A DNA stretch of 54,707 nucleotides from IMG/VR virus record IMGVR_UViG_3300035698_023471. One strand, written 5' to 3'. Below the pieces are notes generated by a model. The model made no database searches. It was not told the origin of the DNA and was given only the letters and a program-made list of their open reading frames with translations. How positions within the stretch are numbered: the first letter of the stretch is position 1; the number at the start of each line of letters is the position of its first letter. The position numbers and the translations under genes were made by a program. Source of the stretch: an uncultured virus (IMG/VR IMGVR_UViG_3300035698_023471). Taxonomy: Duplodnaviria > Heunggongvirae > Uroviricota > Caudoviricetes. Below, in pieces: positions 3,981 to 52,354 of this stretch.

Positions 3981-4012
3981 AAAAGGGGGACGATGAATCG
4001 TCCCCCTTTTTT
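3981..4012. terminator. bidirectional intrinsic terminator
   Basis: AAAAGGGGGACGAT-GA-ATCGTCCCCCTTTTTT between convergent genes. Confidence 0.8.
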
Positions 4013-4277
4013 ATTTCGACGGCATACTGATAATTTCTGAATTATTATTCATGATTGAATATGTCATCTTATTATCTTTTTTGATATTGCAAAAATACCA
4101 AGGCAATCTTCTCTTATCATTAATCCAACTTGGATAAAAACTCATCGAATCAATTCTGAAGGTTGAATGAATTTCACCTAAAGAGAAAAACAATTCCTTA
4201 CACCTATTCTTTTCGGAAATAGGATTCCCATGCCAATCTAATTCTTTCAATAAACAATTGTGTACTTTCAGTTTCAT
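4011..4277 (-). CDS. MKIKLHN-tag small protein
   Basis: starts MKLKVHNC. Confidence 0.8.
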   Translation of the reverse strand: MKLKVHNCLLKELDWHGNPISEKNRCKELFFSLGEIHSTFRIDSMSFYPSWINDKRRLPWYFCNIKKDNKMTYSIMNNNSEIISMPSK

Positions 4278-5258: not shown

Positions 5259-5507
5259 TTAAATGAAATTTCCTGTCAAAGTTGAAAAATTGTGGCGAGT
5301 ATCGACGTAAGACATCGTTTTCTCATTCGTTTTCAAATCCCATTGTAATAATAAGTTTTTCCATTTATCAAAATGGGAATAACTGATTTCAGTTTCAGAT
5401 TTAACTGGAGTCATATTGGCTCTGACAGTACCATTCAACCAATATTTTTCATCTAAATGTCCGAAATCGATCTTCGCCCAAATACTATTATGAATTTTGA
5501 TTTTCAT
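5259..5507 (-). CDS. MKIKLHN-tag small protein
   Basis: starts MKIKIHNS. Confidence 0.8.
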   Translation of the reverse strand: MKIKIHNSIWAKIDFGHLDEKYWLNGTVRANMTPVKSETEISYSHFDKWKNLLLQWDLKTNEKTMSYVDTRHNFSTLTGNFI

Positions 5508-6216: not shown

Positions 6217-6405
6217 TTATATTCTAAATTGACGATCAAAGTTACTCTCCTTGAAAAATAAAGGGGAATATTCATCTGGCCGGGCGAATATGGTGCGAGT
6301 TCCATCATTATGGCACCTCACTTCAACCTCATTGATGAAAAGGTAATTCCGATCATGCCCTTTAAAAATAATGCTTGTGACAGAATTGTGAACTTTTATC
6401 TTCAT
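6217..6405 (-). CDS. MKIKLHN-tag small protein
   Basis: starts MKIKVHNS. Confidence 0.8.
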   Translation of the reverse strand: MKIKVHNSVTSIIFKGHDRNYLFINEVEVRCHNDGTRTIFARPDEYSPLFFKESNFDRQFRI

Positions 6406-6638
6406 CTTACGATATCGATCCTCTCCAAACACCTTCCACGGTCATCGTAAAGAGACATTTCATATTTGTCGAAGCTTAAACAAGAAACTCCTTCTAAGCC
6501 TGTTAATTCATGCCATTCCAAGAAATTTGAGTTCGATTTTAAGGTCTTTAGTAAAATCACCTTAAATTGATTGAAGCCAGCAAGTTCCTTAACTTTCTTA
6601 CTAAATACTGCCGTCGAATTATGTGGTTTTATTCTCAT
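6402..6638 (-). CDS. MKIKLHN-tag small protein
   Basis: starts MRIKPHNS. Confidence 0.8.
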   Translation of the reverse strand: MRIKPHNSTAVFSKKVKELAGFNQFKVILLKTLKSNSNFLEWHELTGLEGVSCLSFDKYEMSLYDDRGRCLERIDIVR

Positions 6639-6663: not shown

Positions 6664-6948
6664 CTACTTTCCACTAGAACTTGCCGTACTTGCTTCCTCT
6701 CTAGAAATGAGAGAAACTTCTGCTTGAGGAAGAAAAGGCCGAATATCATTTAAAGTCATCGTGATCTTATAGTCAGGAACGTAGATGAGTGTCATCTTTT
6801 CATCTACGATCTCAAATCCACCAAGAATATTATTCCTCTTCCTCATCTCCATTTTCCCGAAACGAAAATTAAAATGAAAAAAACTATACCTATGTTGACA
6901 TTTAAAATGACCTTCCTGTACGACAGAATTGTGAATTTTCAATTGCAT
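6664..6948 (-). CDS. MKIKLHN-tag small protein
   Basis: starts MQLKIHNS. Confidence 0.75.
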   Translation of the reverse strand: MQLKIHNSVVQEGHFKCQHRYSFFHFNFRFGKMEMRKRNNILGGFEIVDEKMTLIYVPDYKITMTLNDIRPFLPQAEVSLISREEASTASSSGK

Positions 6949-7187
6949 CCGAATAAAAATTCCCCAATCTCTAACTTTTTTTCATGAAACTTGTATTGAG
7001 CTTCTAATAAAACACTTCTTGATATACAAATTCCTCTTTTCGTCAAGAAAATGTAACATTCATTAAACGACCAGTTGTAAGGAGCGAGAAAACCGTCTCC
7101 TTTTATTTTTTCAAAAGGAACTAATTCACATATGCCTCCTCGTTCGGCGACCGAATAGGCTAATGTGTTGTGAATTCGAATTTTCAT
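6939..7187 (-). CDS. MKIKLHN-tag small protein
   Basis: starts MKIRIHNT. Confidence 0.8.
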   Translation of the reverse strand: MKIRIHNTLAYSVAERGGICELVPFEKIKGDGFLAPYNWSFNECYIFLTKRGICISRSVLLEAQYKFHEKKLEIGEFLFGCN

Positions 7188-7206: not shown

Positions 7207-7512
7207 TCACTTGTTGCCCCAACGATCAAGAGGTATCTTCATGTCCCTCCAAATGAACTCCAAAGGCTTCAAGTTCTCCTTCACTGAATTGAAGACATCC
7301 CTAGGATTCCTCTTTAAAACGTCCCAGGACCATTTCACGAAGTCACCCATCCTTCGGCTCATTTCATCATAGTTCTCCCCGTAGCCCTCATCGAAAGCTG
7401 TGAAAACCCACCTCAGCATCTTTGTCGCTTCCTCAGATTGTTCGGGAGTCAACATTTGTGCCTCGATCATCTTCGTCAAAGAAGCAGAGTAAAACAAATC
7501 AATCATCTTCAT
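7207..7512 (-). CDS. hypothetical protein (no tag)
   Basis: 101 aa ORF with GGAGG SD, interrupts the minus-strand tag cluster. Confidence 0.7.
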   Translation of the reverse strand: MKMIDLFYSASLTKMIEAQMLTPEQSEEATKMLRWVFTAFDEGYGENYDEMSRRMGDFVKWSWDVLKRNPRDVFNSVKENLKPLEFIWRDMKIPLDRWGNK

Positions 7513-7756
7513 CCTCCAACATGACCACCGTTTTCGGCTTAGCTAAGATCCAATTGTTCTTTATGGGACCTATGATGGCTCGATTTGCCTTATAGTCAAA
7601 AGACCAGTAAAAATCTTTCGTCGAACCAGATGTTAAATTATTATTCGCATTTCCACGACAGTAGTCTCTCCAATAACGGAAAGTTAAATCCCCCATCGTG
7701 AAGTACCTATCACCTTTCCTAGGCGACAACATAGAATTGTGCATTCTCAATTTCAT
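7499..7756 (-). CDS. MKIKLHN-tag small protein
   Basis: starts MKLRMHNS. Confidence 0.8.
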   Translation of the reverse strand: MKLRMHNSMLSPRKGDRYFTMGDLTFRYWRDYCRGNANNNLTSGSTKDFYWSFDYKANRAIIGPIKNNWILAKPKTVVMLEDEDD

Positions 7757-7757
7757 C

Positions 7758-7786
7758 TTGACTTTTTCCTTCACTCATAGTATACT
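7758..7786 (+). promoter_or_regulatory. sigma70 promoter at head of the tag array
   Basis: TTGACT-17bp-TATACT; overlaps an ACTCATAGT motif (7773-7781). Confidence 0.75.
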
Positions 7787-7817
7787 CAAAAGAAACAGCG
7801 GAATACTGTACGCACTC

Positions 7818-8066
7818 ATGAATATCAAATGCCATAATTCGATCATCAGATTTGACAAAAGATGCGAAACTACCTCCATTTTAGTTGAAAATCTGCAAGA
7901 AATCAATCCGATGCATGTGAATTGCTTCAAAAAAGACTCGATGATCTGGTTGAGACACATCTTATTCAAAGGTACTTACCTAAAAATATCCGTACAAAAT
8001 TTTGTCGTGAACTATCGCCATCAGGACAAATCGCTCGAATTGTCAGATAAATGGTATTCAACATGA
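7818..8066 (+). CDS. MKIKLHN-tag small protein
   Basis: starts MNIKCHNS. Confidence 0.75.
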   Translation: MNIKCHNSIIRFDKRCETTSILVENLQEINPMHVNCFKKDSMIWLRHILFKGTYLKISVQNFVVNYRHQDKSLELSDKWYST

Positions 8067-8281
8067 AAATCAAATATCACAATTGCTTATTAGACTCAGA
8101 TCGATTGATTAGAAATTTTCAAGGTGAATCGTTCATCTGTGAAAAGAATGACGAAGTAAATGCCTTCTTTTTGACTTTTGAGGATTTCTTTTTAAACTTA
8201 TTCAAGAATGAGAACGAGGATGAAGTCATATCTCTATCTTTTATTAAAGAAAATGACATTACATTTTGGTCGAAAACATGA
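8063..8281 (+). CDS. MKIKLHN-tag small protein
   Basis: starts MKIKYHNC. Confidence 0.85.
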   Translation: MKIKYHNCLLDSDRLIRNFQGESFICEKNDEVNAFFLTFEDFFLNLFKNENEDEVISLSFIKENDITFWSKT

Positions 8282-8544
8282 AAATAAAATTACATAATCA
8301 AATAGCTAGTTATTTTCCCAAAAAAGGTTCTTGGTTCGCCTTGGATCGTTTTCTTTTGCGAAGAGACTTACTCGATTCCATCAAAATCGCAGATTTCAAG
8401 TATCGATACTCCGTCATTTACAATCTTGAAGACTGCAGTCTCAGAGAATTCGAGGTTTACGCCTATGATATGGACACCTTTTCTAAAATCGCCATGGAAA
8501 TATTGAGAAAGAGGATCATCTTGGAAGAAAGGACCTTGACATGA
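8278..8544 (+). CDS. MKIKLHN-tag small protein
   Basis: starts MKIKLHNQ. Confidence 0.85.
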   Translation: MKIKLHNQIASYFPKKGSWFALDRFLLRRDLLDSIKIADFKYRYSVIYNLEDCSLREFEVYAYDMDTFSKIAMEILRKRIILEERTLT

Positions 8545-8598
8545 AGCACTTTTTGTGATACCATTATGACAGTTGGATGGTTTCCAACCGTCCGACTG
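8536..8598 (+). promoter_or_regulatory. internal sigma70 promoter plus conserved 5' hairpin/dyad (copy 1)
   Basis: TTGACA-17-TACCAT with extended TG, then CAGTTGGATGGTTTCCAACCGTCCGACTG. Confidence 0.75.
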
Positions 8599-8616
8599 GA
8601 AGATGAGATGAGAATC

Positions 8617-8865
8617 ATGAAGATAAAAGTTCATCAATCCATTCCCGAACCCTACGCCTCGAAGGCTGGGAAAGTCGATTCTTTCATCCTAAAATGGGAT
8701 ATGGGGAGATTCAAATGCTACTATCGTCCTTCGGCGAAATTGGAATACTTCTACAAATACAAATTATGCGATCCAAATGCGAAGTTCTTGACCTTTGAAT
8801 TGAACGGGAAGGATGTCATCAGAAATACTTCCAGCATAGATACTTCGATGAAAGAATTGAAATGA
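8617..8865 (+). CDS. MKIKLHN-tag small protein
   Basis: starts MKIKVHQS. Confidence 0.85.
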   Translation: MKIKVHQSIPEPYASKAGKVDSFILKWDMGRFKCYYRPSAKLEYFYKYKLCDPNAKFLTFELNGKDVIRNTSSIDTSMKELK

Positions 8866-9065
8866 AAATCAAGCTACACAACTGTGCGAGACAACAAGGT
8901 TGTTTTTATTTCAAAAACCTTTCATTGATCTATCTCTTGAAAGATCGACGAACGATCAAGTTTTTCATGATTGATGAAACGACAGGGTATTTAAAAGCAA
9001 ATTACTATAGCACCTATACTCGATCTTTCATCGCATCCAGTGTTTTTCGAGCGACGACGAAATGA
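8862..9065 (+). CDS. MKIKLHN-tag small protein
   Basis: starts MKIKLHNC. Confidence 0.85.
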   Translation: MKIKLHNCARQQGCFYFKNLSLIYLLKDRRTIKFFMIDETTGYLKANYYSTYTRSFIASSVFRATTK

Positions 9066-9307
9066 AAATCAAAATGCACAATTCCGTCGCCTGTGGAATC
9101 TCATTTAGGAGGGGGAGGAGTCTGGACGATCATTACTTCTTCGCCAATTCTAAATGTGACAAATTCGTCAATCTTTCTGGAGCTTATATCTATTTCGGAA
9201 CAGTGAATTACAAATCCGTTCAAAAATTCAGATTCCTTTTCGAAGGAATCTTCATCAAACCAGGTAAAATTCAATTTTCTTATTTTCCGGCGACCATAGA
9301 AAAATGA
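9062..9307 (+). CDS. MKIKLHN-tag small protein
   Basis: starts MKIKMHNS. Confidence 0.85.
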   Translation: MKIKMHNSVACGISFRRGRSLDDHYFFANSKCDKFVNLSGAYIYFGTVNYKSVQKFRFLFEGIFIKPGKIQFSYFPATIEK

Positions 9308-9615
9308 AAATCAAAATTCACGATTCATTACATGAAAAATTATCCTGGTCCGGAAACGAAACTTCTATATTTTTCTTCTTTAACGGTCTGGGTTCTGGAG
9401 TAGCGACTTCTGTGTTCTTCTTCTTTAACGGACTGGGAATCGCAGTCAAGAAAAATAAAAACAGAGTCATTTTTCGAGCAACGAAAAATGACGAAGGGCA
9501 ATTGGAATTCGATTCAAAAATTAGAAAATTTTTGACCTTCGACATTCCGAATAAAAGATTTTCTTATTTCGATTTTTCGAAAAACAACGTTCCGGAAGTG
9601 GATATCCCTCTTTAA
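9304..9615 (+). CDS. MKIKLHN-tag small protein with internal 15-aa duplication
   Basis: starts MKIKIHDS; TS[IV]FFFFNGLG twice. Confidence 0.85.
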   Translation: MKIKIHDSLHEKLSWSGNETSIFFFFNGLGSGVATSVFFFFNGLGIAVKKNKNRVIFRATKNDEGQLEFDSKIRKFLTFDIPNKRFSYFDFSKNNVPEVDIPL

Positions 9616-9616
9616 G

Positions 9617-9886
9617 ATGAAAATCAAACTACACAACTCTACACTCAATTTGGTTCATGCCAGCAATGAATTCGTGACTTCCACGAGCTGGGGTGATGAT
9701 TTCAACAATCTATCTCTCTTCATACATGCAGAATACGATTTCATGCAAATACATCGGCAGGCCAGAGAATACGATCAATTCGCCTATTCTTTCAAAGGAC
9801 GCGATGAGGGAAATTTCTCAATCACTCATCGTGATAAAGATGAAATCTTGGTACAGCTCGTGAGAACGGAAACGGAATTCAAATGA
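9617..9886 (+). CDS. MKIKLHN-tag small protein
   Basis: starts MKIKLHNS. Confidence 0.85.
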   Translation: MKIKLHNSTLNLVHASNEFVTSTSWGDDFNNLSLFIHAEYDFMQIHRQAREYDQFAYSFKGRDEGNFSITHRDKDEILVQLVRTETEFK

Positions 9887-10095
9887 AGCTCAAGGTTCAT
9901 AACTCCTTGTTAGAAGAGAATCCATCTCATTTGAGACTTTCTCAATTCATCGAAGTTCGAGTTAGTCATTTCACTTATATCCTAGAAGTCAACAATTTTT
10001 CTTTCCATTGGAATCATGATGATGAAAACTTCGTCGTCTTCAGCAATGATTATGAAAATGGTTGCCATCAGTGGAGTGAGATGAAATTCAAATGA
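9883..10095 (+). CDS. MKIKLHN-tag small protein
   Basis: starts MKLKVHNS. Confidence 0.85.
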   Translation: MKLKVHNSLLEENPSHLRLSQFIEVRVSHFTYILEVNNFSFHWNHDDENFVVFSNDYENGCHQWSEMKFK

Positions 10096-10367
10096 AACTT
10101 AAAATTCATAATCTATTCGTTCAAAAAAGTAGATATTCAGATTTAAATCATTACTTGAGCTTCAACGATTTGTTTCTGATTCATCATCAAGCAGGAAGAG
10201 AATTGGTGGCCTTCTATGAATTTGATGAACGACAATTTGACTTCGAAGATGTTAAAACTTGGAGTAAATGGGAGGTACACATCAATCACCATTATGGTGA
10301 CGATCTAATTGAATATTTCCACAAAAATATCAGAATGATAGAGTCATGGTCTTGGGACATGCTTTGA
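10092..10367 (+). CDS. MKIKLHN-tag small protein
   Basis: starts MKLKIHNL. Confidence 0.85.
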   Translation: MKLKIHNLFVQKSRYSDLNHYLSFNDLFLIHHQAGRELVAFYEFDERQFDFEDVKTWSKWEVHINHHYGDDLIEYFHKNIRMIESWSWDML

Positions 10368-10368
10368 A

Positions 10369-10602
10369 ATGAAACTAAAATTACACAACATGACAATCCC
10401 CTCTCGAAAGGGTGAAGACTGTTTCATGAAATATTTCACGGTCGGACCCATGAGTTGTTGGAATGGGTCCCAATTCAATACTTTCGTCAATTACTGGTAC
10501 ATCGGAGAAAACAGCAGGATGGCCATCTTGCTATGGAATCCTCATGAAAAAGAACTTGTCAAAACTTCATTCTTCGGATGTAGGTGTGTGTCATTGATAT
10601 GA
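10369..10602 (+). CDS. MKIKLHN-tag small protein
   Basis: starts MKLKLHNM. Confidence 0.85.
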   Translation: MKLKLHNMTIPSRKGEDCFMKYFTVGPMSCWNGSQFNTFVNYWYIGENSRMAILLWNPHEKELVKTSFFGCRCVSLI

Positions 10603-10841
10603 AACTACAAATTCACAATTCATTGTTCAAAGGGAACTTAGACAGATACCCAGGGATCATCTACTTCGACATTTGTGCGAATTGGGCTTGTTGGTTCACT
10701 GACAATTCTTTCAAGTTTAAACGATGTTACATCAGCATTCGGGTCAAAGGCGATCACGAATCATCCACCTACGATTTCGTGAGGAAGGAGTTCGAACATG
10801 AAAGTTCAAGTACACAACTCTCTATCGGTAGGAGTCGATGA
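10599..10841 (+). CDS. MKIKLHN-tag small protein
   Basis: starts MKLQIHNS. Confidence 0.85.
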   Translation: MKLQIHNSLFKGNLDRYPGIIYFDICANWACWFTDNSFKFKRCYISIRVKGDHESSTYDFVRKEFEHESSSTQLSIGRSR

Positions 10842-10992
10842 ACATCCGGAAAAGTCGATTCGTTGGATCACTTTCAAACTCAATTCCAGAAGATTCTGGA
10901 CTTGGACAAATATTTCCCCTTCGGTTTACATCGAAATGGACAAAACTTTTGACAAATATTCCTTCGATTCCACGAAGAAAAGGTTCATATGA
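10798..10992 (+). CDS. MKIKLHN-tag small protein
   Basis: starts MKVQVHNS. Confidence 0.85.
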   Translation: MKVQVHNSLSVGVDEHPEKSIRWITFKLNSRRFWTWTNISPSVYIEMDKTFDKYSFDSTKKRFI

Positions 10993-11240
10993 AACTACAG
11001 ATGCACAACATGTTGACTTCGGAGGGCTGTCAGTTACCTGAATGGAGCGAATTCAATTTCAATCAATTTCGGATCGTCATCAATCAATCTGAAAAGATTT
11101 CCTACAATTTCAGGATCTTCTTCGGACCACTAGGTCCGAAAAGAATTCATCAGTTCATCTTCGAATTTTCTCCATATGGAGAGATGTATTGGGAACAAAT
11201 TGATGATGGAACGGGTTCATGGGGTCGGACTAAACTATGA
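10989..11240 (+). CDS. MKIKLHN-tag small protein
   Basis: starts MKLQMHNM. Confidence 0.85.
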   Translation: MKLQMHNMLTSEGCQLPEWSEFNFNQFRIVINQSEKISYNFRIFFGPLGPKRIHQFIFEFSPYGEMYWEQIDDGTGSWGRTKL

Positions 11241-11476
11241 GAATTAAACTACATAACACTCTGGTGGGGAATGAGGAAAATGGAATCGCCAACGTCGTGT
11301 TGTCAAGGTCCATCGGTTTCGGATACACGCATAGATTCAATGAACTCTACGTCTACGCCATGAGGATAAAATTCGAGGGACTCATTCAGTTCTATTCTCC
11401 GAAGATGAAAATTGTCATCACATACGATCCTTCAGAACAAATTTTCATAAACTTAAACTATTCAAATGAAAATTAG
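11237..11476 (+). CDS. MKIKLHN-tag small protein
   Basis: starts MRIKLHNT. Confidence 0.85.
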   Translation: MRIKLHNTLVGNEENGIANVVLSRSIGFGYTHRFNELYVYAMRIKFEGLIQFYSPKMKIVITYDPSEQIFINLNYSNEN

Positions 11477-11750
11477 GCCACATAACTCATTGTGCATCGA
11501 TTCCGAAGAAGATCCCGGCTTCCTTCTCTTGCAGCACGTCGTGGTCGGAAGAGAATTGCTATCTCACATGGCAAGAATGTTCTTCGGCAATAATGTTTCT
11601 ATCTACACCCGTAAGTTCTGTGTGACATTCTGCAAGGATAGTATGCTCTGCATCTATCCCTATCGCGGATTGAAGAAAGGGAGCAAGGGGCATTTGGACG
11701 ACATCCTCCTAGATTTTAAAAATGAGATCATGATCGAGCTGAACGAATGA
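11466..11750 (+). CDS. MKIKLHN-tag small protein
   Basis: starts MKIRPHNS. Confidence 0.85.
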   Translation: MKIRPHNSLCIDSEEDPGFLLLQHVVVGRELLSHMARMFFGNNVSIYTRKFCVTFCKDSMLCIYPYRGLKKGSKGHLDDILLDFKNEIMIELNE

Positions 11751-11992
11751 AAATTAAGATACACAATCAACTGACAACTGTGGGAAGAAATCCTGAAAAT
11801 GTTTCGATAGTAGCGAAGGGTTTCTTTTTCAATCAATTTTTCATGACCTTCTCTAGAAAGAATCCCCTCATCTATTTCAAGAATCAAATAGATGATGAAA
11901 ATCACGATCATTGTTTTTCGTTACTTCTGAGTGAAAAACAATACTTCTATCATCTTAAACGGGATGATTTCTGGGAGAGATATCGGGTCTGA
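11747..11992 (+). CDS. MKIKLHN-tag small protein
   Basis: starts MKIKIHNQ. Confidence 0.85.
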   Translation: MKIKIHNQLTTVGRNPENVSIVAKGFFFNQFFMTFSRKNPLIYFKNQIDDENHDHCFSLLLSEKQYFYHLKRDDFWERYRV

Positions 11993-12144
11993 TGAAACTC
12001 AAAATTCACAACTCATTGATCGTGCATAGAACTAGAAGACTTTGGCTCTTTCAAGGTGAGATATTTTACTTCGATCAACAATGGAAAACTTTCTTCACCG
12101 CGATAGATGAACCACATGTCCTAGAACTATCGGAATTGCTATGA
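11992..12144 (+). CDS. MKIKLHN-tag small protein (50 aa, below ORF-track cutoff)
   Basis: hand-translated MKLKIHNSLIVHRTRRLWLFQ...ELL*. Confidence 0.8.
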   Translation: MKLKIHNSLIVHRTRRLWLFQGEIFYFDQQWKTFFTAIDEPHVLELSELL

Positions 12145-12425
12145 AAATCAAACTACATGACTCTTTGGTCCTCTTCTTGAAACGAGAAAATCGGCAAAAA
12201 GATTTTCTTCGTTTCAATGATTTGATTGTGTCGATCAGCCCTCCTCCTTGCGATCTCATTCAATTTTCTCATGTTAATAAGTTGTTTTATTTCAAACGCG
12301 AGAGCTATTCTAAATACCATGAAGTCGCCATCCTTCAACATTCTTTTCGAGATGAAAACTTGAAATTCATTGACTTTAAAAATCAACCAGTCCAAATTCG
12401 TGACCGTTGGGGAAATGAAGCATGA
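12141..12425 (+). CDS. MKIKLHN-tag small protein
   Basis: starts MKIKLHDS. Confidence 0.85.
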   Translation: MKIKLHDSLVLFLKRENRQKDFLRFNDLIVSISPPPCDLIQFSHVNKLFYFKRESYSKYHEVAILQHSFRDENLKFIDFKNQPVQIRDRWGNEA

Positions 12426-12673
12426 AAATTCAAATTCACAACTCATTACTATTGCAGAATGATAAATTGAAACTCATGAGATTGAATCAAACTGCCTTGA
12501 GAGGGGGGAGATATAAGGATATCCCCGCCCCTCCTTACATGTATAGTCCCTTCTTCTACATTTACGATGAAAAACGTTTCAGCTCATCTGTTTGGGGAAT
12601 ATCCGACAGTCTTTCAGCCTTGAAGAAGATTCTTCCCGATTGGACCACCGTAGAATGGGAACAAATGTCATGA
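12422..12673 (+). CDS. MKIKLHN-tag small protein
   Basis: starts MKIQIHNS; paralog of next gene. Confidence 0.85.
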   Translation: MKIQIHNSLLLQNDKLKLMRLNQTALRGGRYKDIPAPPYMYSPFFYIYDEKRFSSSVWGISDSLSALKKILPDWTTVEWEQMS

Positions 12674-12924
12674 AAATTCAAATTCACAACTCATTGCTCT
12701 TGCAGAATCAATATCTCGTGAGATTGAATCAATCCGTATTGAAAAGACGAATAGGAAACATGAAAAGAGAAATTTACATTCCTCCTTACATGTTTCACGC
12801 CTTTTCCTACGATTATGAAACGGAAAATTTCAATATGTCGGTTTGGCACATCACTGGTTCGAAAAATTCTACGATCAAGATCAATCGTGATTGGGACAAA
12901 ATGAATTGGAAAAACTTGAGATGA
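12670..12924 (+). CDS. MKIKLHN-tag small protein
   Basis: starts MKIQIHNS. Confidence 0.85.
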   Translation: MKIQIHNSLLLQNQYLVRLNQSVLKRRIGNMKREIYIPPYMFHAFSYDYETENFNMSVWHITGSKNSTIKINRDWDKMNWKNLR

Positions 12925-13181
12925 AAATCAAATTGCACAATCAATTCAAAGATTCTTACAAACATGACTCATACCCTGGAACTTTGTTTAAATTTGGCGA
13001 TGAAATATCGATGACGTTCTCACAACTCAATATTTCATCCATCTTTTACTCATGTCATGACGCTTGCACTTTCCTCGGTTTCAATCATGTCGATGGAAAA
13101 TTCACTGAAGAATCTGGCTTCGGAGATGGTACGAGATATTCGATGAATGAAGATTGGATCGAAACTTGGACGAAAGAATGA
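12921..13181 (+). CDS. MKIKLHN-tag small protein
   Basis: starts MKIKLHNQ. Confidence 0.85.
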   Translation: MKIKLHNQFKDSYKHDSYPGTLFKFGDEISMTFSQLNISSIFYSCHDACTFLGFNHVDGKFTEESGFGDGTRYSMNEDWIETWTKE

Positions 13182-13187
13182 AAAACC

Positions 13188-13400
13188 ATGAAAATCAAAT
13201 TGCACAATCAATTATGTGAGAAGAAAAATTACAAGGGTTACTACTTGTTCGGTATCTTGAAAAGTGAAGAGACATTTCATGTCTGGACCAATGCGGAGAT
13301 GAAAGTCATTCGTCTTCGTGTCGAATTTGACGACCGATTCAATTTCGATGTCTTGGCATTCGACCCCGACACGAGAACCTTCACGGGAGAAAAACCATGA
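13188..13400 (+). CDS. MKIKLHN-tag small protein
   Basis: starts MKIKLHNQ. Confidence 0.85.
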   Translation: MKIKLHNQLCEKKNYKGYYLFGILKSEETFHVWTNAEMKVIRLRVEFDDRFNFDVLAFDPDTRTFTGEKP

Positions 13401-13618
13401 AGATTAAATTGCACAACTATTCGGTGAACCTCAAGGAAGAATCAGTCTTGACCAAGAATTTGATCGTCACTGAAGAGGACATAGTCATCACGAACTTTCA
13501 CGTAGATAGAAACCTCATGACGCTGTGGGCGGGGCAAAGATTCAACCCGCTGAAAATACATCCCTTGAACAACTTGACGATGGGCATCTTTTCCCATGAG
13601 AAGGTGAAATGGGTTTAA
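13397..13618 (+). CDS. MKIKLHN-tag small protein
   Basis: starts MKIKLHNY; paralog of next gene. Confidence 0.85.
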   Translation: MKIKLHNYSVNLKEESVLTKNLIVTEEDIVITNFHVDRNLMTLWAGQRFNPLKIHPLNNLTMGIFSHEKVKWV

Positions 13619-13626
13619 AAACTGAA

Positions 13627-13875
13627 ATGAAGATCAAATTACACAACCTCACGATGGTGACCAAACCGGGGAGCCCTGAAGCCGGCCTCACCGTGAATTT
13701 GGTCGTCATGAATGACCTCATCTTCGTCACGAACTTCTACGTCAATAGACATGTGATGGGTTTGTTTGAAAAACCTGCGGCCATGAAAATGATGAATCTT
13801 TGTCCCACGGATGATTTCACCATCGGCGTCTTTCATGTGGTGAGGAAGGAATGGACTGAGAACCCCTTGACATGA
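13627..13875 (+). CDS. MKIKLHN-tag small protein
   Basis: starts MKIKLHNL. Confidence 0.85.
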   Translation: MKIKLHNLTMVTKPGSPEAGLTVNLVVMNDLIFVTNFYVNRHVMGLFEKPAAMKMMNLCPTDDFTIGVFHVVRKEWTENPLT

Positions 13876-13895
13876 AGGCCCGGATGTGATAGACT
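13867..13895 (+). promoter_or_regulatory. internal sigma70 promoter in the array
   Basis: TTGACA-17-TAGACT with extended TG. Confidence 0.7.
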
Positions 13896-13904
13896 TCAAC
13901 TAAG

Positions 13905-14132
13905 ATGAAACTCAAGGTACACAATTCTCTCATCGAGATTGAAAACAATGACTGTCTGCCATGGAACAGGATGTTCGTGGGCTTTTTTGGGGGTGATATC
14001 ATCTCCATCGCTCAGAGAGGCGATGAAGAAAATTTTCATGACTTGGTCATCGACAGGATCAGAGGCAGATTTTTCATGAAAGAACATGACCTCGATGGAC
14101 ATATGCTGAACTTCTTGGGAGATTTCGGATGA
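13905..14132 (+). CDS. MKIKLHN-tag small protein
   Basis: starts MKLKVHNS. Confidence 0.85.
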   Translation: MKLKVHNSLIEIENNDCLPWNRMFVGFFGGDIISIAQRGDEENFHDLVIDRIRGRFFMKEHDLDGHMLNFLGDFG

Positions 14133-14383
14133 AACTTCGAGTTCACAATTCATTGTTGAGGGCTGAGGCAGATAGTGATAATTTCGTGAACGCTTACTTC
14201 TCCCTCAATCAAATCCTCACTCTCAGAGGGAGAATTGAAATTCATGTCTGGGACGGAATCCATGCCCCCTCCTTCATGATTTTTCATGAAGGTGGGGAGA
14301 TTTCCTTACGTGAAAATGTATTACCGGCTTCTAAAAGACATGAGGAGTTTTTCAATTTTATCTCATGGGAGAATTTAACGTGA
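14129..14383 (+). CDS. MKIKLHN-tag small protein
   Basis: starts MKLRVHNS; close paralog of next gene. Confidence 0.85.
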   Translation: MKLRVHNSLLRAEADSDNFVNAYFSLNQILTLRGRIEIHVWDGIHAPSFMIFHEGGEISLRENVLPASKRHEEFFNFISWENLT

Positions 14384-14685
14384 AACTTCGAGTTCACAAT
14401 TCATTGTTGATGATTGAGGAAGTGGAAGAACTTGTGAGTTCTTACTTCTCCCTCAATCAGGAGGAAGTGGAAGAATTTTCGAGTTCTTACTTCTCCCTCA
14501 ATCGAATCCTCACTCTCAGAGCGAGAATTGAAATTCATGTCTGGGACGGAATCCTTTCAGCCGCCTTCATGACTTTTCATGAGGGAGGGAGGATGACTTT
14601 GAATGAAAGCCATTCTCTCGATCCTAAAAGACTCTTCAATTGGGATAAGATCATGAGCCATATCTCATGGAAGGATCTTAAATGA
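14380..14685 (+). CDS. MKIKLHN-tag small protein with internal 15-aa duplication
   Basis: GTG start, MKLRVHNS; EEVEExxSSYFSLN twice. Confidence 0.85.
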   Translation: MKLRVHNSLLMIEEVEELVSSYFSLNQEEVEEFSSSYFSLNRILTLRARIEIHVWDGILSAAFMTFHEGGRMTLNESHSLDPKRLFNWDKIMSHISWKDLK

Positions 14686-14870
14686 AGATCAAATATCATA
14701 ATCTCTTGGCTGTGGAGATACGTGAAGATGATTCCCATTGTTTCATCTTATCTCAAACACTCATCTGGTTTGGAACGGTTCAACGACAAGCCGTCTTCGT
14801 CTGTGATCGTGAGAATGGATTAGCTCACCTTCGCCTCGATGAGGAGAAGGAACTATCGGAAGTGAACTAA
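14682..14870 (+). CDS. MKIKLHN-tag small protein
   Basis: starts MKIKYHNL. Confidence 0.85.
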   Translation: MKIKYHNLLAVEIREDDSHCFILSQTLIWFGTVQRQAVFVCDRENGLAHLRLDEEKELSEVN

Positions 14871-15049
14871 TGAAGATCAAATATCATAATCTCTTGGCCG
14901 TCGAGAGCGGGGAGGGATTCTTCTCCTTCTCGGATAGTGTCATCTTCCTCGGGGCCTTTCAAGAAACCATCTTCGTGAGTGATGGGTGGAAGTCGTCAGC
15001 TCATCTTTACCTCGATGAGGAGAAGGAGATAATCGACTGTGAGAGTTAA
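14870..15049 (+). CDS. MKIKLHN-tag small protein (59 aa, below ORF-track cutoff)
   Basis: hand-translated MKIKYHNLLAVESGEG...AHLYLDEEKEIIDCES*; paralog of previous gene. Confidence 0.8.
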   Translation: MKIKYHNLLAVESGEGFFSFSDSVIFLGAFQETIFVSDGWKSSAHLYLDEEKEIIDCES

Positions 15050-15323
15050 AATTCACAACTCATTATGTCTGATCGAAGCCGATCATGATCCAACTTATGA
15101 ATCATGGGGGATCGTGAATAGAAATAAATATTGCGTCGTCATTCATTTAAGCTTCGAAGAGAATCATATTTACGTCATGGAGAAGGATTGGTCTTTGTTC
15201 AGACTCGATGTGAGGAAGAAAAACTTGGACTGGATCATGACGGATGAAGGTTATGACATGTTTTTCAGATTCGAGTCCTCTGGGAAGGACATCAACTCTT
15301 TGTTCGGGGGGAACTGGAAATGA
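15039..15323 (+). CDS. MKIKLHN-tag small protein
   Basis: starts MRVKIHNS. Confidence 0.85.
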   Translation: MRVKIHNSLCLIEADHDPTYESWGIVNRNKYCVVIHLSFEENHIYVMEKDWSLFRLDVRKKNLDWIMTDEGYDMFFRFESSGKDINSLFGGNWK

Positions 15324-15538
15324 AGATCAAATTACACAACTTTTTGATGAGAATTGAGGAGAATCAGCCTTTTGACATTAATAGGAAGTGTCGTCTCGAC
15401 TATCATCATGACACTCTCGGATTAACTGCATTTGTGATGAATGATGGGAAGATTTACATCTTCGGAGCACTCCCCTGTCCAGACTATGTGATCTTCGATT
15501 TGGAGAAGAAGGAACCGGAAGTGACGGACTTGACATGA
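15320..15538 (+). CDS. MKIKLHN-tag small protein
   Basis: starts MKIKLHNF. Confidence 0.85.
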   Translation: MKIKLHNFLMRIEENQPFDINRKCRLDYHHDTLGLTAFVMNDGKIYIFGALPCPDYVIFDLEKKEPEVTDLT

Positions 15539-15831
15539 AGATAAAATTGCATGACTCGATGGCGTTGACCTCGATCCTCCGATCTTATCGTAAGGTAAAT
15601 GACATCATCCTTTGCATTTACGATGATGACGTTCGTTACATCACCGATCATGGATGGTCCTACATGTGCTTTGAGAGGGGCGAACTCCTCTTGATCCTCA
15701 CCGACCATGGTTACAAGAATTTCGTGTCGAAGGAGAGGCAAATCCTCGACTCTCACGATCATTGGCTGGAAGAAGTACCGGATGATTCATTCAAAGAAGC
15801 CAAGGCGAAACTGGAAAGAGAATTCATGTGA
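15535..15831 (+). CDS. MKIKLHN-tag small protein
   Basis: starts MKIKLHDS. Confidence 0.85.
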   Translation: MKIKLHDSMALTSILRSYRKVNDIILCIYDDDVRYITDHGWSYMCFERGELLLILTDHGYKNFVSKERQILDSHDHWLEEVPDDSFKEAKAKLEREFM

Positions 15832-16010
15832 AAATCAAATTACACAATTTATTTCAAGAAAAAATGGAGAGGTCCAGGTTCTTCTGCTTCTTCAAAACTG
15901 AGAAGGTGCATATTTGGTCTTATAGTTATGAAAATTGTGTGTCATTAATGCTCTTACCGACCGTTCTTCCCACATGGAAGTTTTATTCACATGAAAATCA
16001 AATTACATAA
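15828..16010 (+). CDS. MKIKLHN-tag small protein
   Basis: starts MKIKLHNL. Confidence 0.8.
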   Translation: MKIKLHNLFQEKMERSRFFCFFKTEKVHIWSYSYENCVSLMLLPTVLPTWKFYSHENQIT

Positions 16011-16218
16011 CGTCCTGACGGTCGTCAGACCGGAAGGTAATTCTTTCATTCTCATTCAAGATTTAGATGTTTTCGAAAGATTTAAATTCGGATTAAAACG
16101 AAATTATGGGGTAGGGATGATCGGGAGACGTGAGTCATTGATTTACATTTGTTCTTCAGGGCGAAGGGGATTTTACGACATCATTTATGACTTGATCGAC
16201 AAGGAATTTAAGAAATGA
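15991..16218 (+). CDS. MKIKLHN-tag small protein
   Basis: starts MKIKLHNV. Confidence 0.85.
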   Translation: MKIKLHNVLTVVRPEGNSFILIQDLDVFERFKFGLKRNYGVGMIGRRESLIYICSSGRRGFYDIIYDLIDKEFKK

Positions 16219-16421
16219 AAATCAAATTACATAACTTCCTGGCTTTTCATCGGAAGAAGAATAAGTCTTATGAAAGATTCGGCTTTCTTCGTGATGAAGA
16301 TGCCTGGATGATCTGGAGGCATAACGACAATGATGAGATTTACATCTGTCTCGACGACGATGATAAGGGACTTTTAGACTTATCCTTCCATTTGGTCACG
16401 AAGGCTTTTCGCTGGGAGTGA
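16215..16421 (+). CDS. MKIKLHN-tag small protein
   Basis: starts MKIKLHNF. Confidence 0.85.
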   Translation: MKIKLHNFLAFHRKKNKSYERFGFLRDEDAWMIWRHNDNDEIYICLDDDDKGLLDLSFHLVTKAFRWE

Positions 16422-16640
16422 ATGATGAAACTCAAAGTTCACAACTCTCTGCTCGTTCATGAAGTGATCGTCTCGGGCGGTAGAGTTGAATTGTCGGATT
16501 TCAAACTTCATGACATCAATGTGTGGAAATGGTATCATCTCTACCATAGATATAGCAGGGAAGCGAATGTCATGTGTTTCGACGTCAGCGAGATCGACTT
16601 CTCCGGAACTTTTGATTATGAGGAGAAGGAATTTCAATGA
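16422..16640 (+). CDS. MKIKLHN-tag small protein
   Basis: starts (M)MKLKVHNS. Confidence 0.85.
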   Translation: MMKLKVHNSLLVHEVIVSGGRVELSDFKLHDINVWKWYHLYHRYSREANVMCFDVSEIDFSGTFDYEEKEFQ

Positions 16641-16810
16641 GAATCAAAATTCACAATCTCTTTTTCATGAAAACGGAATTGAAGAGCAATTATTCCGCTG
16701 TCGGCTATTTCTGGTACATCGTTGAGGATGAAGAATCCTTCCTCGGGATTCATGTCGATGACGATTACGTTCTATTCTATTCTTTCAAGGGGAAGGAGTT
16801 TGAAGAGTGA
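16637..16810 (+). CDS. MKIKLHN-tag small protein (57 aa, below ORF-track cutoff)
   Basis: hand-translated MRIKIHNLFFMKTELKSNY...GKEFEE*. Confidence 0.8.
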   Translation: MRIKIHNLFFMKTELKSNYSAVGYFWYIVEDEESFLGIHVDDDYVLFYSFKGKEFEE

Positions 16811-17046
16811 AAATCAAATTACATAATTCTTTGCCGCGAGGAAGCGGGGAAGGGGAATGGTTCATTCTCAATGAAGAAATGATCCTCGACTTCGTTTATG
16901 TCAACGGGAAAAAGCCTGATTACATCTCAGGACATCACTTACGCAGGGGAGAATACTTCTCCTACGACATGAAGAAGGGGAAATTCGAGTTTCAGGATCA
17001 GATGGCAAGTATACTCAAGGTGGTGAGGAGGATCATTAAGTCTTGA
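16807..17046 (+). CDS. MKIKLHN-tag small protein
   Basis: starts MKIKLHNS. Confidence 0.85.
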   Translation: MKIKLHNSLPRGSGEGEWFILNEEMILDFVYVNGKKPDYISGHHLRRGEYFSYDMKKGKFEFQDQMASILKVVRRIIKS

Positions 17047-17093
17047 CTGTCGTCAGACTGGAGGCCATCGTCTTGACTGTCGTCAGACTGGAG
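17040..17093 (+). repeat. 24-bp direct repeat (period 30) in an array gap
   Basis: GTCTTGACTGTCGTCAGACTGGAG at 17040 and 17070. Confidence 0.9.
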
Positions 17094-17104
17094 AAAATTG
17101 AGTC

Positions 17105-17371
17105 ATGAAAATCAAAATTCACAATTCTTTGCCGAGAAGCAAAAAATTAAAGATTAAAGAATATACTGAATTTTTCTTTAACAAGTTGAAAATCTTTAAA
17201 GATTACTCGTGTTCAGATTATTATTGTAGAATTTTTCATGGACCAGCTGATAAAGATACCGATCATATCTACATCTATGAATTTGGACCTGAAAACAAAG
17301 TTTGGCATCATGAGGAAATCACGGATGAGACCACATTTCCCATTCATAATTGGAATTGGAAATGTTTCTAA
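17105..17371 (+). CDS. MKIKLHN-tag small protein
   Basis: starts MKIKIHNS. Confidence 0.85.
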   Translation: MKIKIHNSLPRSKKLKIKEYTEFFFNKLKIFKDYSCSDYYCRIFHGPADKDTDHIYIYEFGPENKVWHHEEITDETTFPIHNWNWKCF

Positions 17372-17626
17372 ATGAAAATCAAGCCTCACAATTCTTTGGC
17401 GATTTCAAATTCGTCTGATCGTTTTCATAGAATTAACGATACAGTCGTCTATGTCGATAGCGGTCTCGTCTTCGTGGACATCATGTCTAAGACTTTCTCT
17501 GTCTTTCAATTAGATTTAGAAAAACGAAAATTAGAATTGGCCATGACGAACGATGATTACGATTTTTTTTTCAGATGCAAAGATTATGATATGGATATTG
17601 AAAAATGGTTTGGTTGGGTGAAATGA
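17372..17626 (+). CDS. MKIKLHN-tag small protein
   Basis: starts MKIKPHNS. Confidence 0.85.
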   Translation: MKIKPHNSLAISNSSDRFHRINDTVVYVDSGLVFVDIMSKTFSVFQLDLEKRKLELAMTNDDYDFFFRCKDYDMDIEKWFGWVK

Positions 17627-17627
17627 C

Positions 17628-17882
17628 ATGAAAATCAAAATTCACAATTCTTTGAGGAGGGTTCTTCCGAATGGCGTTTTCCTCCTTCACGGGGGAAGGA
17701 GGACGGTCATCTTATCTGACTTGAAGTATGGAAAAATTGATATTTGGGATGGTAAATTCCTTAATCCATTCATTTGCTTGAGGGATGAATCATTATCCCT
17801 GATTAGAGAACAGGATCATGATCGGGAGGTCGCTTTGAATGTGGTGAGTTTGGCGAGAAGATCTATGGAGGTGATCGAATGA
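17628..17882 (+). CDS. MKIKLHN-tag small protein
   Basis: starts MKIKIHNS. Confidence 0.85.
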   Translation: MKIKIHNSLRRVLPNGVFLLHGGRRTVILSDLKYGKIDIWDGKFLNPFICLRDESLSLIREQDHDREVALNVVSLARRSMEVIE

Positions 17883-18101
17883 AACTGAAGGTTCATAATT
17901 CTTTGAGGGGGAGGAGGAACGGTCATCGCAGTCAGAAAAGACAATCACGATTCAATTTACATTTGGGACGGTAAGACGAATCATTCTTTAGCTTACTTCC
18001 TCGGCGGTCATTTTCATTCACTGCATTTAGGAACTAACTCAACCTTGATGAACATAGAAACGATGCTGAAGAAATCTCGTGAAGATGAGGTGGAGGAATA
18101 A
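17879..18101 (+). pseudogene. frameshifted last MKIKLHN-tag gene
   Basis: MKLKVHNSLR frame stops at 17974; a shifted frame after the G-run at 17907-17911 reads GGTVIAVRK..IYIWDGK..EE* to 18101, homologous to the upstream gene (TVIL..IDIWDGK). Confidence 0.7.
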
Positions 18102-36166: not shown

Positions 36167-36412
36167 ATGAAAATCAAACTACACAACAGTTTGTTCAGGA
36201 TGAGGATACCGATTGGCAACTTAGTCCTCACAGAGTTCAGCACAAAAGCAGTAGTGTTGAGAGAGGACCCTAGAGGAGAGGACATCAATGAATTAGTAAT
36301 CACACACAATGGTTTCTGTTGGTGGAATTTCCAACTTGATGGAAACGTCAAGACACAAATCATGAAAAAAGACGATGAGATAAGTCAAAATTATCTTTTC
36401 TTGGATGAATAA
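36167..36412 (+). CDS. MKIKLHN-tag small protein between tRNAs
   Basis: starts MKIKLHNS. Confidence 0.85.
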   Translation: MKIKLHNSLFRMRIPIGNLVLTEFSTKAVVLREDPRGEDINELVITHNGFCWWNFQLDGNVKTQIMKKDDEISQNYLFLDE

Positions 36413-38321: not shown

Positions 38322-38648
38322 ATGAAACTTCGACTCCATCAGTCTTTAATTTGGAACGAGGTAGATGAACTTCACGCAGAGGCATTAGGAGAAGACCTGG
38401 TTTATTCCATAGGGAAGATGGATTTCATCTTCAAAATTGGAAGACGTCATACTACCTGCCCTTACAAAATGGTGATTAAGACAAACCTAGATATTAGCGA
38501 TAAAGGCAGAGGCAGATTGATGCTTCCCTATACCGATTACTGGGTGATGGAAGTAAATCAACATGGTGCTCCATTTCTAATCTCTTCTTCAGAGCATTCC
38601 CGTGGAATTTATTTCACAGCAATAACATTTCGTTACGATGTAGATTAA
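38322..38648 (+). CDS. MKIKLHN-tag small protein between tRNAs
   Basis: starts MKLRLHQS. Confidence 0.8.
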   Translation: MKLRLHQSLIWNEVDELHAEALGEDLVYSIGKMDFIFKIGRRHTTCPYKMVIKTNLDISDKGRGRLMLPYTDYWVMEVNQHGAPFLISSSEHSRGIYFTAITFRYDVD

Positions 38649-51471: not shown

Positions 51472-51678
51472 ATGAAGATTAAACCCCATTTGTGTCTATG
51501 TCGTCCCCAAAGGGACAAAACAGTCAATGAATCCGTTGTCCTCCAATTCGGCACGATGGACATCGAAAGGTATGAATCGTCTGACAGTTGCAACAAATTT
51601 CAATATCGAATGAACGGCATGGAAATATTCTTCCGTTTCGTCAACGTCAGCGATCAAATCTCCATGGAAAGACTATGA
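51472..51678 (+). CDS. MKIKLHN-tag small protein (variant)
   Basis: starts MKIKPHLC; AAGGAG SD. Confidence 0.75.
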   Translation: MKIKPHLCLCRPQRDKTVNESVVLQFGTMDIERYESSDSCNKFQYRMNGMEIFFRFVNVSDQISMERL

Positions 51679-51851: not shown

Positions 51852-52100
51852 ATGAAAATCAAAATCCATAACTCACTATTCAAATACTCAGGAGAAAATA
51901 AATCTTCTTATTTCAGAACTCTAATCAGATTCAACGAAGAAGTGATAGGATATGGAGGAAACCATGGAGACACAGAAATGACCATGATCTGTCCTAGTCC
52001 ATGGATTTTCTATTTCGCGTGGATGCTCTATCATGAAACAGTAATTATAATGGACATGGAGACAAGAGAAGAAATAGGAGAATTTGATTTAAAACCATGA
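51852..52100 (+). CDS. MKIKLHN-tag small protein
   Basis: starts MKIKIHNS. Confidence 0.85.
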   Translation: MKIKIHNSLFKYSGENKSSYFRTLIRFNEEVIGYGGNHGDTEMTMICPSPWIFYFAWMLYHETVIIMDMETREEIGEFDLKP

Positions 52101-52354
52101 AAATCAAAGCCCATAACTCATTAATTAAATATTCGGAAACAAATCTGAGCTATTGGATTCACTATATCCGATTTAATACACTTCAATTTGCCCTAGGTAG
52201 CAATGATGGAACAATCATTTTTGACATAGATCCCATGAATACCTCAACTTGTGACATAACTTATCATTGGGACGGGGGAACAAATCAAGTGACTTTAATG
52301 GACCTACGAAATAAGGTGAACTTCGGAGGACCTTACTCTCGAAAATTAGATTAA
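52097..52354 (+). CDS. MKIKLHN-tag small protein
   Basis: starts MKIKAHNS. Confidence 0.85.
   Translation: MKIKAHNSLIKYSETNLSYWIHYIRFNTLQFALGSNDGTIIFDIDPMNTSTCDITYHWDGGTNQVTLMDLRNKVNFGGPYSRKLD

Follow-up and report, generated by a model that had tools for sequence, protein, structure and literature searches.

Here we describe a family of 57 small open reading frames (ORFs; 31-108 amino acids, aa) in a 54,707-nucleotide (nt) stretch of DNA from an uncultured tailed virus, IMG/VR record IMGVR_UViG_3300035698_023471; this whole stretch is referred to below as the window. The products of these genes begin with a common nine-residue peptide, M-K-I-K-phi-H-N-S-L (phi, hydrophobic), which we term the tag, and have almost nothing recognizable in common thereafter: across all 1596 pairs, mean identity is 64.5% in residues 1-9, 7.0% in residues 10-18 and 6.8% in residues 19-27. 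The tag is conserved by purifying selection that acts chiefly on the peptide. Judging from their sequences, we read the genes as one paralog family of common origin, whose bodies have diverged almost to randomness and retain a weak family-wide signal. We tentatively propose, at slightly less than even confidence, that this is a hyper-diverged family in which the N-terminal peptide serves as a common docking or address element.

The family was delimited with two search patterns. The expression M[KR][ILVM][KRQ].H[NDQ] matches the window 48 times in six frames, compared to a mean of 0.04 and a maximum of 1 in 50 shuffles. A relaxed expression anchored on start codons gives 61 matches, four of which we removed by eye to leave the 57 members: three ORFs of 26-31 aa lacking the H-N/D/Q-S-L continuation (17816-17896 and 22877-22957 on the minus strand, 48294-48389 on the plus strand), and one with a TTG start and Arg at position 7 (28799-29050, plus strand). 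Forty-three members lie head to tail on the plus strand in a single array at 7818-17974; seven are on the minus strand at 4011-7756, with three larger genes interspersed; two lone members, at 36167 and 38322, are located between tRNA genes; and five form a last cluster at 51472-52810. Their products are aromatic-rich and about 80 aa long, and translation starts at ATG in 53 cases and GTG in four. An earlier reading of this DNA, made from the sequence alone (the sequence-only reading), had counted 43 array genes and about 57 copies in the window, which the motif search confirms; its size range for the array genes, 50-105 aa, has to be revised to 31-103 aa.

The consensus start is M-[KR]-[ILV]-[KRQ]-x-H-[NDQ], mostly followed by S-L. 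Position 2 is Lys in 50 of the 57 members and Arg in five; position 3 is Ile in 40, Leu in 15 and Val in two; position 4 is Lys in 44, Arg in six and Gln in five; and position 5 is chiefly Leu, Ile or Val. Position 6 is His in every member, an invariance that the sequence-only reading had already noted. At position 7 we find Asn in 51 members, Asp in three, Gln in two and Leu in one, and at position 8 Ser in 35, Cys in four and Thr in two, with Leu, Gln, Met, Phe, Tyr or Val in the other 16. Position 9 is Leu in 38 members and hydrophobic in 51. The 30 nt upstream of the starts carry at most 0.4 bit per position; because this upstream DNA is nearly uninformative and identity collapses after residue 9, the conserved block spans codons 1-9, with the start codon as its first. 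The shared N-terminal peptide recognized earlier is therefore real, but it is nine residues long rather than eight.

Several features of codon usage establish the level at which the tag is conserved. Third codon positions within it carry little information: Ile and Leu at position 3 are encoded by eight different codons, Ser8 by both TCN and AGT, and Leu9 by both TTR and CTN. Since Leu and Ser thus switch between the classes of their six-fold-degenerate codons, selection is on the peptide, as the sequence-only reading had argued from synonymous variation. The same switches, combined with the unconserved upstream DNA, rule out an RNA or DNA site as the sole cause of the tag; an Rfam search returned tRNAs only. 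The codon variation is real, but the synonymous sites are not neutral. CAC makes up 36 of the 57 His6 codons and, in the bodies, 19 of 118 (Fisher p 8e-10); Lys is AAA at 78 of 94 tag codons and 168 of 263 body codons; Asn is AAC at 24 of 51 tag codons and 63 of 232 body codons; and ATC is used more for Ile in the tag than in the bodies. Arg2 is AGA in all five cases because the ATGA stop/start overlap between adjacent genes demands it, and conservation of M-K is partly imposed by this gene-junction architecture. Translation-level or accuracy selection has likely been added to the selection on the peptide.

Outside the tag, relatedness among the bodies is faint. With the first ten residues removed, BLAST detects 8 of 1540 body pairs at E<=1e-3 and 19 at E<=0.1, while shuffled bodies give none and four, respectively, among 3136 ordered pairs. 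Alignment of the bodies suggests two weak motifs: a turn of the form aromatic-x-aromatic-Asn that leads into an alternating strand and, further on, phi-x-phi-Asp-x-x-x-Lys-x-Phe. When two-fold cross-validation ranks held-out members against their own shuffles, 24% and 28% reach the top 5% (5% expected), and in leave-one-out profiles with BLAST neighbors excluded, 13 of 56 bodies exceed all 30 shuffles. Held-out bodies also outscore their own reversed sequence, a control that preserves composition and periodicity, in 39 of 56 cases (Wilcoxon p 2e-4). Because the C-terminal ‘K-E-F’-like residues encode the Shine-Dalgarno (SD) sequence of the next gene, we repeated this comparison with the last 7 residues trimmed, and the real body still wins in 35 of 56 cases (p 0.002). 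The sequence-only reading had described the bodies as mostly unalignable by eye and as variable payloads, and the proteins as sharing only the tag. The eight distinct paralog pairs, together with a family-wide signal that is significant though weak, show this last phrase to be overstated and do not support unrelated payloads.

As to how the bodies diverged, similarity at the DNA level is confined to five pairs. A frameshift origin can be rejected: all five of these matches are in frame, and out-of-frame translations give no match below E 0.03. Two members carry a 45-nt tandem duplication (9361-9437 and 14416-14503) where the weak aromatic-Asn motif lies, and in-frame tandem duplication therefore contributes to body divergence.

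We predicted structures for two members with AlphaFold2, using the paralog alignment. The model of the 57-aa protein, the shortest complete member, has a predicted local distance difference test (pLDDT) score of 72.7 and a predicted template modeling (pTM) score of 0.49, and shows a five-strand antiparallel beta-meander over residues 18-56 (block means pLDDT 75-88), with residues 1-10 as coil at pLDDT 57 outside the sheet. The model of an 89-aa member is unusable at pLDDT 52.3; both models are all-beta, and we take the family products to be beta-sheet proteins. A complex prediction with two copies of the 57-aa member scores 0.01. Foldseek finds no match for the model at E<=0.001 in the PDB or BFVD, and VIA-align against 48,161 chains gives a best Z of 4.7, to a generic beta-meander. 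The ESM Atlas contains a poor model (pLDDT 0.37) for one member and no model for a second, with no feature match above 0.77. Across the family, residues 9-10 are hydrophobic, residues 11-18 polar and turn-rich, and residues 19-27 hydrophobic, a profile that fits either a free arm with a linker or a first strand with a hairpin loop.

The family genes are mostly translationally coupled, with 26 of the 42 array junctions formed by 4-nt stop/start overlaps of the ATGA type. SD-like 4-mers precede 39 of the 57 starts, compared to 14.3 ± 3.1 at random array positions, suggesting that the host is a bacterium employing SD sequences. Sites of the form TTGAC[AT]-N16-18-TAnnnT occur 39 times in the window, 34 of them on the plus strand, compared to 5.1 ± 2.1 in shuffles, and most conform to a longer consensus (tag-TTGACAAT...TGTGATAyCAT). 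Three of the larger intergenic gaps of the array are occupied by such sites (at 7758, 8536 and 13867), and promoters of the same class precede the tRNA genes and the CobS/CobT genes. Beyond the array, promoter-like sites continue on the plus strand at 18485-53551 at about one per kb (for example at 18485, 19927, 25785, 34918, 42388 and 46427). Directly downstream of five promoters, the one at 8536 and those at 25785, 34918, 42388 and 46427, lies a leader repeat of about 40 nt with stem-loop potential; contig ends are loose at 8552 and 8604 because this promoter-leader repeat recurs at 34918. Since they stand behind sigma-70-type promoters, as judged from consensus matches, the family genes are probably early, and probably transcribed by the host RNA polymerase. 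The promoter-like sites as a whole suggest that the entire window is host-polymerase-transcribed, early-type territory.

We propose that the nonapeptide would form an amphipathic strand, one face of which carries Lys-Lys-His, continued by Asn-Ser, and would link each member to one common partner or destination; candidates include a host hub, a phage protein, a protease or unfoldase, and the prohead. The variable bodies would supply differing specificities, making up an arms-race set of host-takeover or anti-defense proteins, and the sequence beyond residue 9 has drifted, or been driven, to near-random similarity. We favor a docking or address element because nothing but an interaction that reads these nine residues readily explains why they alone have resisted divergence, and also because our best model places the tag outside the folded part of the protein. 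The sequence-only reading had likewise proposed an address or docking tag with a variable payload; its conserved short module on diverging bodies remains the leading account, with the payloads now read as diverged paralogs.

Several observations weigh against this proposal. The tag is left unplaced, at low confidence, by one model, and the second model is unusable. The alternation K-I-K-phi-H, together with the hydrophobic/loop/hydrophobic pattern that follows, is also what would be expected of the first strand of a hairpin within a fold. The synonymous sites of the tag are biased (His CAC 63% compared to 16% in the bodies; Lys AAA; Asn AAC), and some nucleotide- or translation-level force must therefore also act on it; moreover, M-K-I-K resembles sequences reported to boost early elongation (PMC6920384). 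Finally, hhalign comparison of half-family body alignments over six splits finds nothing above shuffled or reversed controls, and family-wide homology of the bodies therefore rests on weak statistics.

The alternative that survives best, though we consider it fairly unlikely, is ordinary paralog expansion, in which the nonapeptide supplies the opening beta-strand and turn of a single small fold. Its conservation would then stem from folding nucleation or from functional residues such as His6 and Asn7, and nothing would read a tag. The residue pattern described above, from the alternating start through hydrophobic residues 9-10 and the polar loop at 11-18 to hydrophobic residues 19-27, is what this alternative calls for, and the weak shared signal in the bodies, their two weak motifs and the all-beta character of both models are consistent with it as well. 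On the other hand, no other strand of the putative fold retains its sequence, and identity is down to 7% immediately after residue 9. A structural strand would, moreover, normally be expected to tolerate conservative drift like the rest of the protein. The sequence-only reading had named a tag that forms the first strand of a conserved fold as grounds for abandoning its proposal; in the sole model of usable confidence the tag is a low-confidence coil that does not join the sheet.

A role in translation alone, which we judge distinctly unlikely, would make the start of each gene an optimized initiation and early-elongation ramp, acting through the mRNA and the nascent peptide, with no role for the peptide in the mature protein; every cistron of the long coupled operons would depend on it for its production. 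The prevalence of ATGA-type overlaps, the exclusive use of AGA at Arg2, and the tag's preference, compared to the bodies, for Lys AAA, Ile ATC, His CAC and Asn AAC all fit such a ramp. Protein yield is reported by Verma et al. (2019; PMC6920384) to rise with K|N-Y|I at codons 3-5 and with the tripeptide K-I-H, in part through the amino acids themselves, and M-K-I-K-[LIV]-H resembles these motifs in carrying K-I and K-I-H near its N-terminus. The reported effect, however, is limited to codons 3-5; it does not predict His6 in 57 of 57 members, Asn7 in 51, or the Ser-Leu at positions 8-9. In addition, other genes in the window start with M-K but lack H-N-S-L, and SD-like sequences are already present upstream of most family starts.

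The sequence-only reading had drawn a parallel to the capsid-targeting sequences of T4 internal proteins, which would imply that every member is packaged in the prohead and injected together with the DNA. We regard this as very unlikely. The layout is the same, since T4-type internal proteins have a conserved stretch of about 10 residues at the N-terminus of highly diverse bodies and are thought to be arms-race effectors (PMC3012670, PMC9026906). T4 capsid-targeting peptides end in an L/I-x-E site that is cut by the prohead protease (PMC9026906), and [LI]-x-E does occur in residues 7-25 of 21 of the 57 members, compared to 12.1 ± 2.8 with shuffled bodies; the other 36 lack it, and not one of the 57 has Asp or Glu in residues 1-10. 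The promoters in front of the family belong to the class that also drives tRNA and CobS/CobT genes, general family scans recognize no head, protease or scaffold gene in the window, and no member matches a PHROG of internal proteins. The parallel thus fails on its defining cleavage feature, and the early-looking promoters and the absence of recognizable head genes also count against it.

We give only a slim chance to an N-terminal degron, in which a host or phage AAA+ protease or its adaptor would read the tag and clear the early proteins on schedule. One class of N-terminal motifs recognized by the protease component ClpX begins Met-basic-hydrophobic, which the tag may resemble. The early-type promoters would suit it, as would a tag that is terminal, short and, in the usable model, apparently outside the folded part, and recognition of N-terminal motifs in native substrates by ClpX is documented (PMC5415555).

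Scarcely credible is a split-intein-like handle, in which residues 1-7, closing with His-Asn and preceding a Ser, Cys or Thr, would be a minimal C-intein (the last strand of a HINT fold). An N-intein protein encoded elsewhere in the genome would then be spliced to a wide choice of C-terminal modules, or cleave them. Of the 57 members, 51 have H-N, with Ser, Cys or Thr at residue 8 in 41, and the exact H-N-[SCT] in 35, and the replacements at position 7 include Asp and Gln. Against this, 16 members lack a +1 nucleophile, Pfam finds no Hint or intein domain in 72 non-family ORFs of the window, and NCBIfam gives no such match on the members. Lys at two positions of the putative C-intein strand is atypical for that motif, and we know of no natural split intein with a C-fragment of this 6-7-residue type. 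If true, this reading would describe a protein-level cassette system yielding a combinatorial set of fusion proteins. The closest parallel is to engineered S11 split inteins, which function with C-inteins of 6-7 residues (PMC3620165) and likewise have a very short N-terminal peptide ending in splicing residues followed by a nucleophile and joined to an arbitrary C-terminal protein; they are man-made, and they differ from the phage family in the points just listed.

The docking or address proposal concerns a family that, within the collections we searched, is lineage-specific, comprising the 57 genes described here and at least one elsewhere. None of the 57 members scores above the Pfam gathering threshold or matches PHROGs at E<=0.001 (weak matches, at E 0.0085-0.097, are to unrelated families of unknown function); NCBIfam gives just four single-member matches (E 0.03-0.09), and PDB sequences give none at E<=10. 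The sequence-only reading had not recognized the family, and neither does any of these libraries. It had also suggested a profile search of phage and metagenome proteins, which we ran exhaustively on 1.84 billion representative proteins and which yields eight matches at E<=1e-3. Six match proteins of the window exactly, as judged by eye, a seventh (P0005) differs at one residue from the member at 12670, and the eighth (P0008), encoded on a 15.8-kb contig from another source, is the sole member outside the phage. P0008 opens with the tag, from what is probably a GTG start codon, and both weak motifs of the bodies can be seen in it by eye; tblastn against phages finds no match to it. Word-index searches return only the query's own protein for the family profile and only P0008 for itself.

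DNA pattern scans of three collections give 4, 66 and 24 single matches, and more than one tag ORF only in metagenome contigs L017 and L062. L062 is the same phage, 100% identical to the window, and L017 is a second strain of it, 99.84% identical (3 mismatches in 1926 bases over 7435-9360). In L017 the member at 8063 differs from that of the window at three residues, all within the first twelve. Eight salt lake metagenome runs contain parts of the array at low depth. Contigs L081 and L092, from archaeal metagenome-assembled genomes, encode related 98-aa ORFs that share the tag's eight residues and then diverge from the phage family; chance agreement over a short N-terminal strand is the most likely cause of this likeness.

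We take the window for a segment of a large and highly divergent tailed-phage-like genome, recovered from salt-lake metagenomes, in whose AT-richer accessory region the family is located. It contains 12 tRNA genes at 35418-40782 (Tyr, Lys, Asn, Phe, Leu x2, Trp, Gln, Cys, Ser x3), and its other recognizable proteins are a CobT-like VWA protein, a CobS-like AAA+ protein, DUF7227, a Kyano_Gp96-like protein and a BRCT-domain protein; most remaining ORFs have no Pfam or PHROGs match. The phage collection contains no close relative. The CobS-like protein has only distant matches, of cyanophage type (<=30% identity). Megablast of 38825-47794 and tblastn of a 571-aa protein find no match in phage records, and a search of viral contigs for related loci with P0008, a 467-aa protein and the CobS-like protein gives no usable locus. 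ORFs of 212 and 229 aa (33146-33784 and 43589-44278) share their first seven residues and are possibly another, smaller set of paralogs, two in number, with a common start.

Some further features of the window lie at or near the array. A 24-nt direct repeat containing TTGACT occurs twice, 30 nt apart, at 17040-17093, and a 30-nt direct repeat occurs twice, 72 nt apart, at 18107-18208, near the array end. Downstream of duplicated strong promoters at 18485 and 18594, two long ORFs overlap in different frames (18698-19534 and 18726-19331), and neither has a family match. A contig joint from 4297 to 11097 with 28 foreign letters is not interpretable.

Table 1. Tag-family genes, promoter-like sites and leader repeats in the window. 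Each tag-family gene was identified as an ORF with the N-terminal motif.
Feature	Length (aa)	Position	Strand	Detail
Tag-family gene	88	4011..4277	-	
Tag-family gene	82	5259..5507	-	
Tag-family gene	62	6217..6405	-	
Tag-family gene	78	6402..6638	-	
Tag-family gene	94	6664..6948	-	
Tag-family gene	82	6939..7187	-	
Tag-family gene	85	7499..7756	-	
Sigma-70-type promoter-like site		7758..7786	+	TTGACT-17-TATACT; 61-nt divergent gap before first array gene
Tag-family gene	82	7818..8066	+	First of plus-strand array
Tag-family gene	72	8063..8281	+	
Tag-family gene	88	8278..8544	+	
Promoter-like site and leader repeat		8536..8604	+	TTGACA-17-TACCAT with TG; fills 72-nt array gap
Tag-family gene	82	8617..8865	+	
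Tag-family gene	67	8862..9065	+	
Tag-family gene	81	9062..9307	+	
Tag-family gene	103	9304..9615	+	Internal 45-nt tandem duplication (9361-9437)
Tag-family gene	89	9617..9886	+	
Tag-family gene	70	9883..10095	+	
Tag-family gene	91	10092..10367	+	
Tag-family gene	77	10369..10602	+	
Tag-family gene	80	10599..10841	+	
Tag-family gene	64	10798..10992	+	
Tag-family gene	83	10989..11240	+	
Tag-family gene	79	11237..11476	+	
Tag-family gene	94	11466..11750	+	
Tag-family gene	81	11747..11992	+	
Tag-family gene	50	11992..12144	+	
Tag-family gene	94	12141..12425	+	
Tag-family gene	83	12422..12673	+	
Tag-family gene	84	12670..12924	+	
Tag-family gene	86	12921..13181	+	
Tag-family gene	70	13188..13400	+	
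Tag-family gene	73	13397..13618	+	
Tag-family gene	82	13627..13875	+	
Promoter-like site		13867..13895	+	TTGACA-17-TAGACT with TG; 29-nt array gap
Tag-family gene	75	13905..14132	+	
Tag-family gene	84	14129..14383	+	
Tag-family gene	101	14380..14685	+	GTG start; internal 45-nt tandem duplication (14416-14503)
Tag-family gene	62	14682..14870	+	
Tag-family gene	59	14870..15049	+	
Tag-family gene	94	15039..15323	+	GTG start
Tag-family gene	72	15320..15538	+	
Tag-family gene	98	15535..15831	+	
Tag-family gene	60	15828..16010	+	GTG start
Tag-family gene	75	15991..16218	+	
Tag-family gene	68	16215..16421	+	
Tag-family gene	71	16425..16640	+	
Tag-family gene	57	16637..16810	+	Member modeled at pLDDT 72.7
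Tag-family gene	79	16807..17046	+	GTG start
Tag-family gene	88	17105..17371	+	
Tag-family gene	84	17372..17626	+	
Tag-family gene	84	17628..17882	+	
Truncated tag-family gene (stump)	31	17879..17974	+	Last of array
Tag-family gene	81	36167..36412	+	Between tRNA-Leu and tRNA-Trp
Tag-family gene	108	38322..38648	+	Between two tRNA-Ser genes
Borderline tag-family gene	68	51472..51678	+	Leu at position 7
Tag-family gene	82	51852..52100	+	
Tag-family gene	85	52097..52354	+	
Tag-family gene	74	52358..52582	+	
Tag-family gene	72	52592..52810	+	
Leader repeat copies		8565-8604, 25814-25850, 34947-34985, 42417-42455, 46456-46494		

The family itself is new: a narrow literature search for tandem phage multigene families with a conserved N-terminus did not find it described among the titles listed, and its scale, its sharp tag boundary and its tag sequence have no described counterpart in what we searched. 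Its kind is already known, both as lineage-specific arrays of small early phage ORFans and as short conserved terminal peptides on polymorphic phage proteins. The fall in identity from 64.5% to 7% across 57 paralogs is, on any reading, a natural experiment on selection of the first nine residues. Should the tag act only on translation or turnover, nature would have provided, in exceptionally clear form, an example of a selected N-terminal expression or stability module.

Among systems with short leaders or programmed diversity, precursors of ribosomally synthesized and post-translationally modified peptides (RiPPs) and diversity-generating retroelements offer little likeness. Pfam scans of the window find neither a RiPP enzyme family nor a reverse transcriptase family; the phage ‘cores’ are 50-100 aa long and predicted to fold, and DNA similarity among the bodies amounts to the five in-frame paralog pairs. 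In eukaryotes, the RxLR effectors of oomycetes and the PEXEL effectors of Plasmodium form large tandem families that combine a short N-terminal address with unalignable bodies. Those proteins belong to secretory systems with signal peptides, and the analogy to the phage family is one of logic only.

Among phages, the window resembles the hyperplastic early regions of T4-type genomes that carry promoter-early-stem-loop (PeSL) cassettes, which, according to Arbiol et al. (2010; PMC2839356), are AT-rich, comprise many small non-essential ORFans and contain repeated strong sigma-70-like promoters. The 39 promoter-like sites of the window, some followed by a repeated leader, match this description, and the leader with its stem-loop potential calls the PeSL cassettes to mind; unlike the ORFans of those regions, described there as mutually unrelated, the genes of the window share a start peptide and are chained into long operons by stop/start overlaps. 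The T4 proteins with capsid-targeting sequences share with the phage tag family a short conserved N-terminal peptide on divergent small bodies. The tag differs from theirs in having neither an acidic residue nor an L/I-x-E site, and the family in numbering 57 copies rather than a handful, in its early-looking promoters, in the absence of recognizable head genes nearby, and in having no sequence or profile match. If the tag is nonetheless a portable label, the family would be a second, independent case of the logic of T4 internal proteins, with one short tag on many interchangeable effectors, at a tenfold larger scale and in a setting of early genes, and its nine residues would give a ready-made handle with which to identify the partner and to follow the diversification of a phage protein arsenal.

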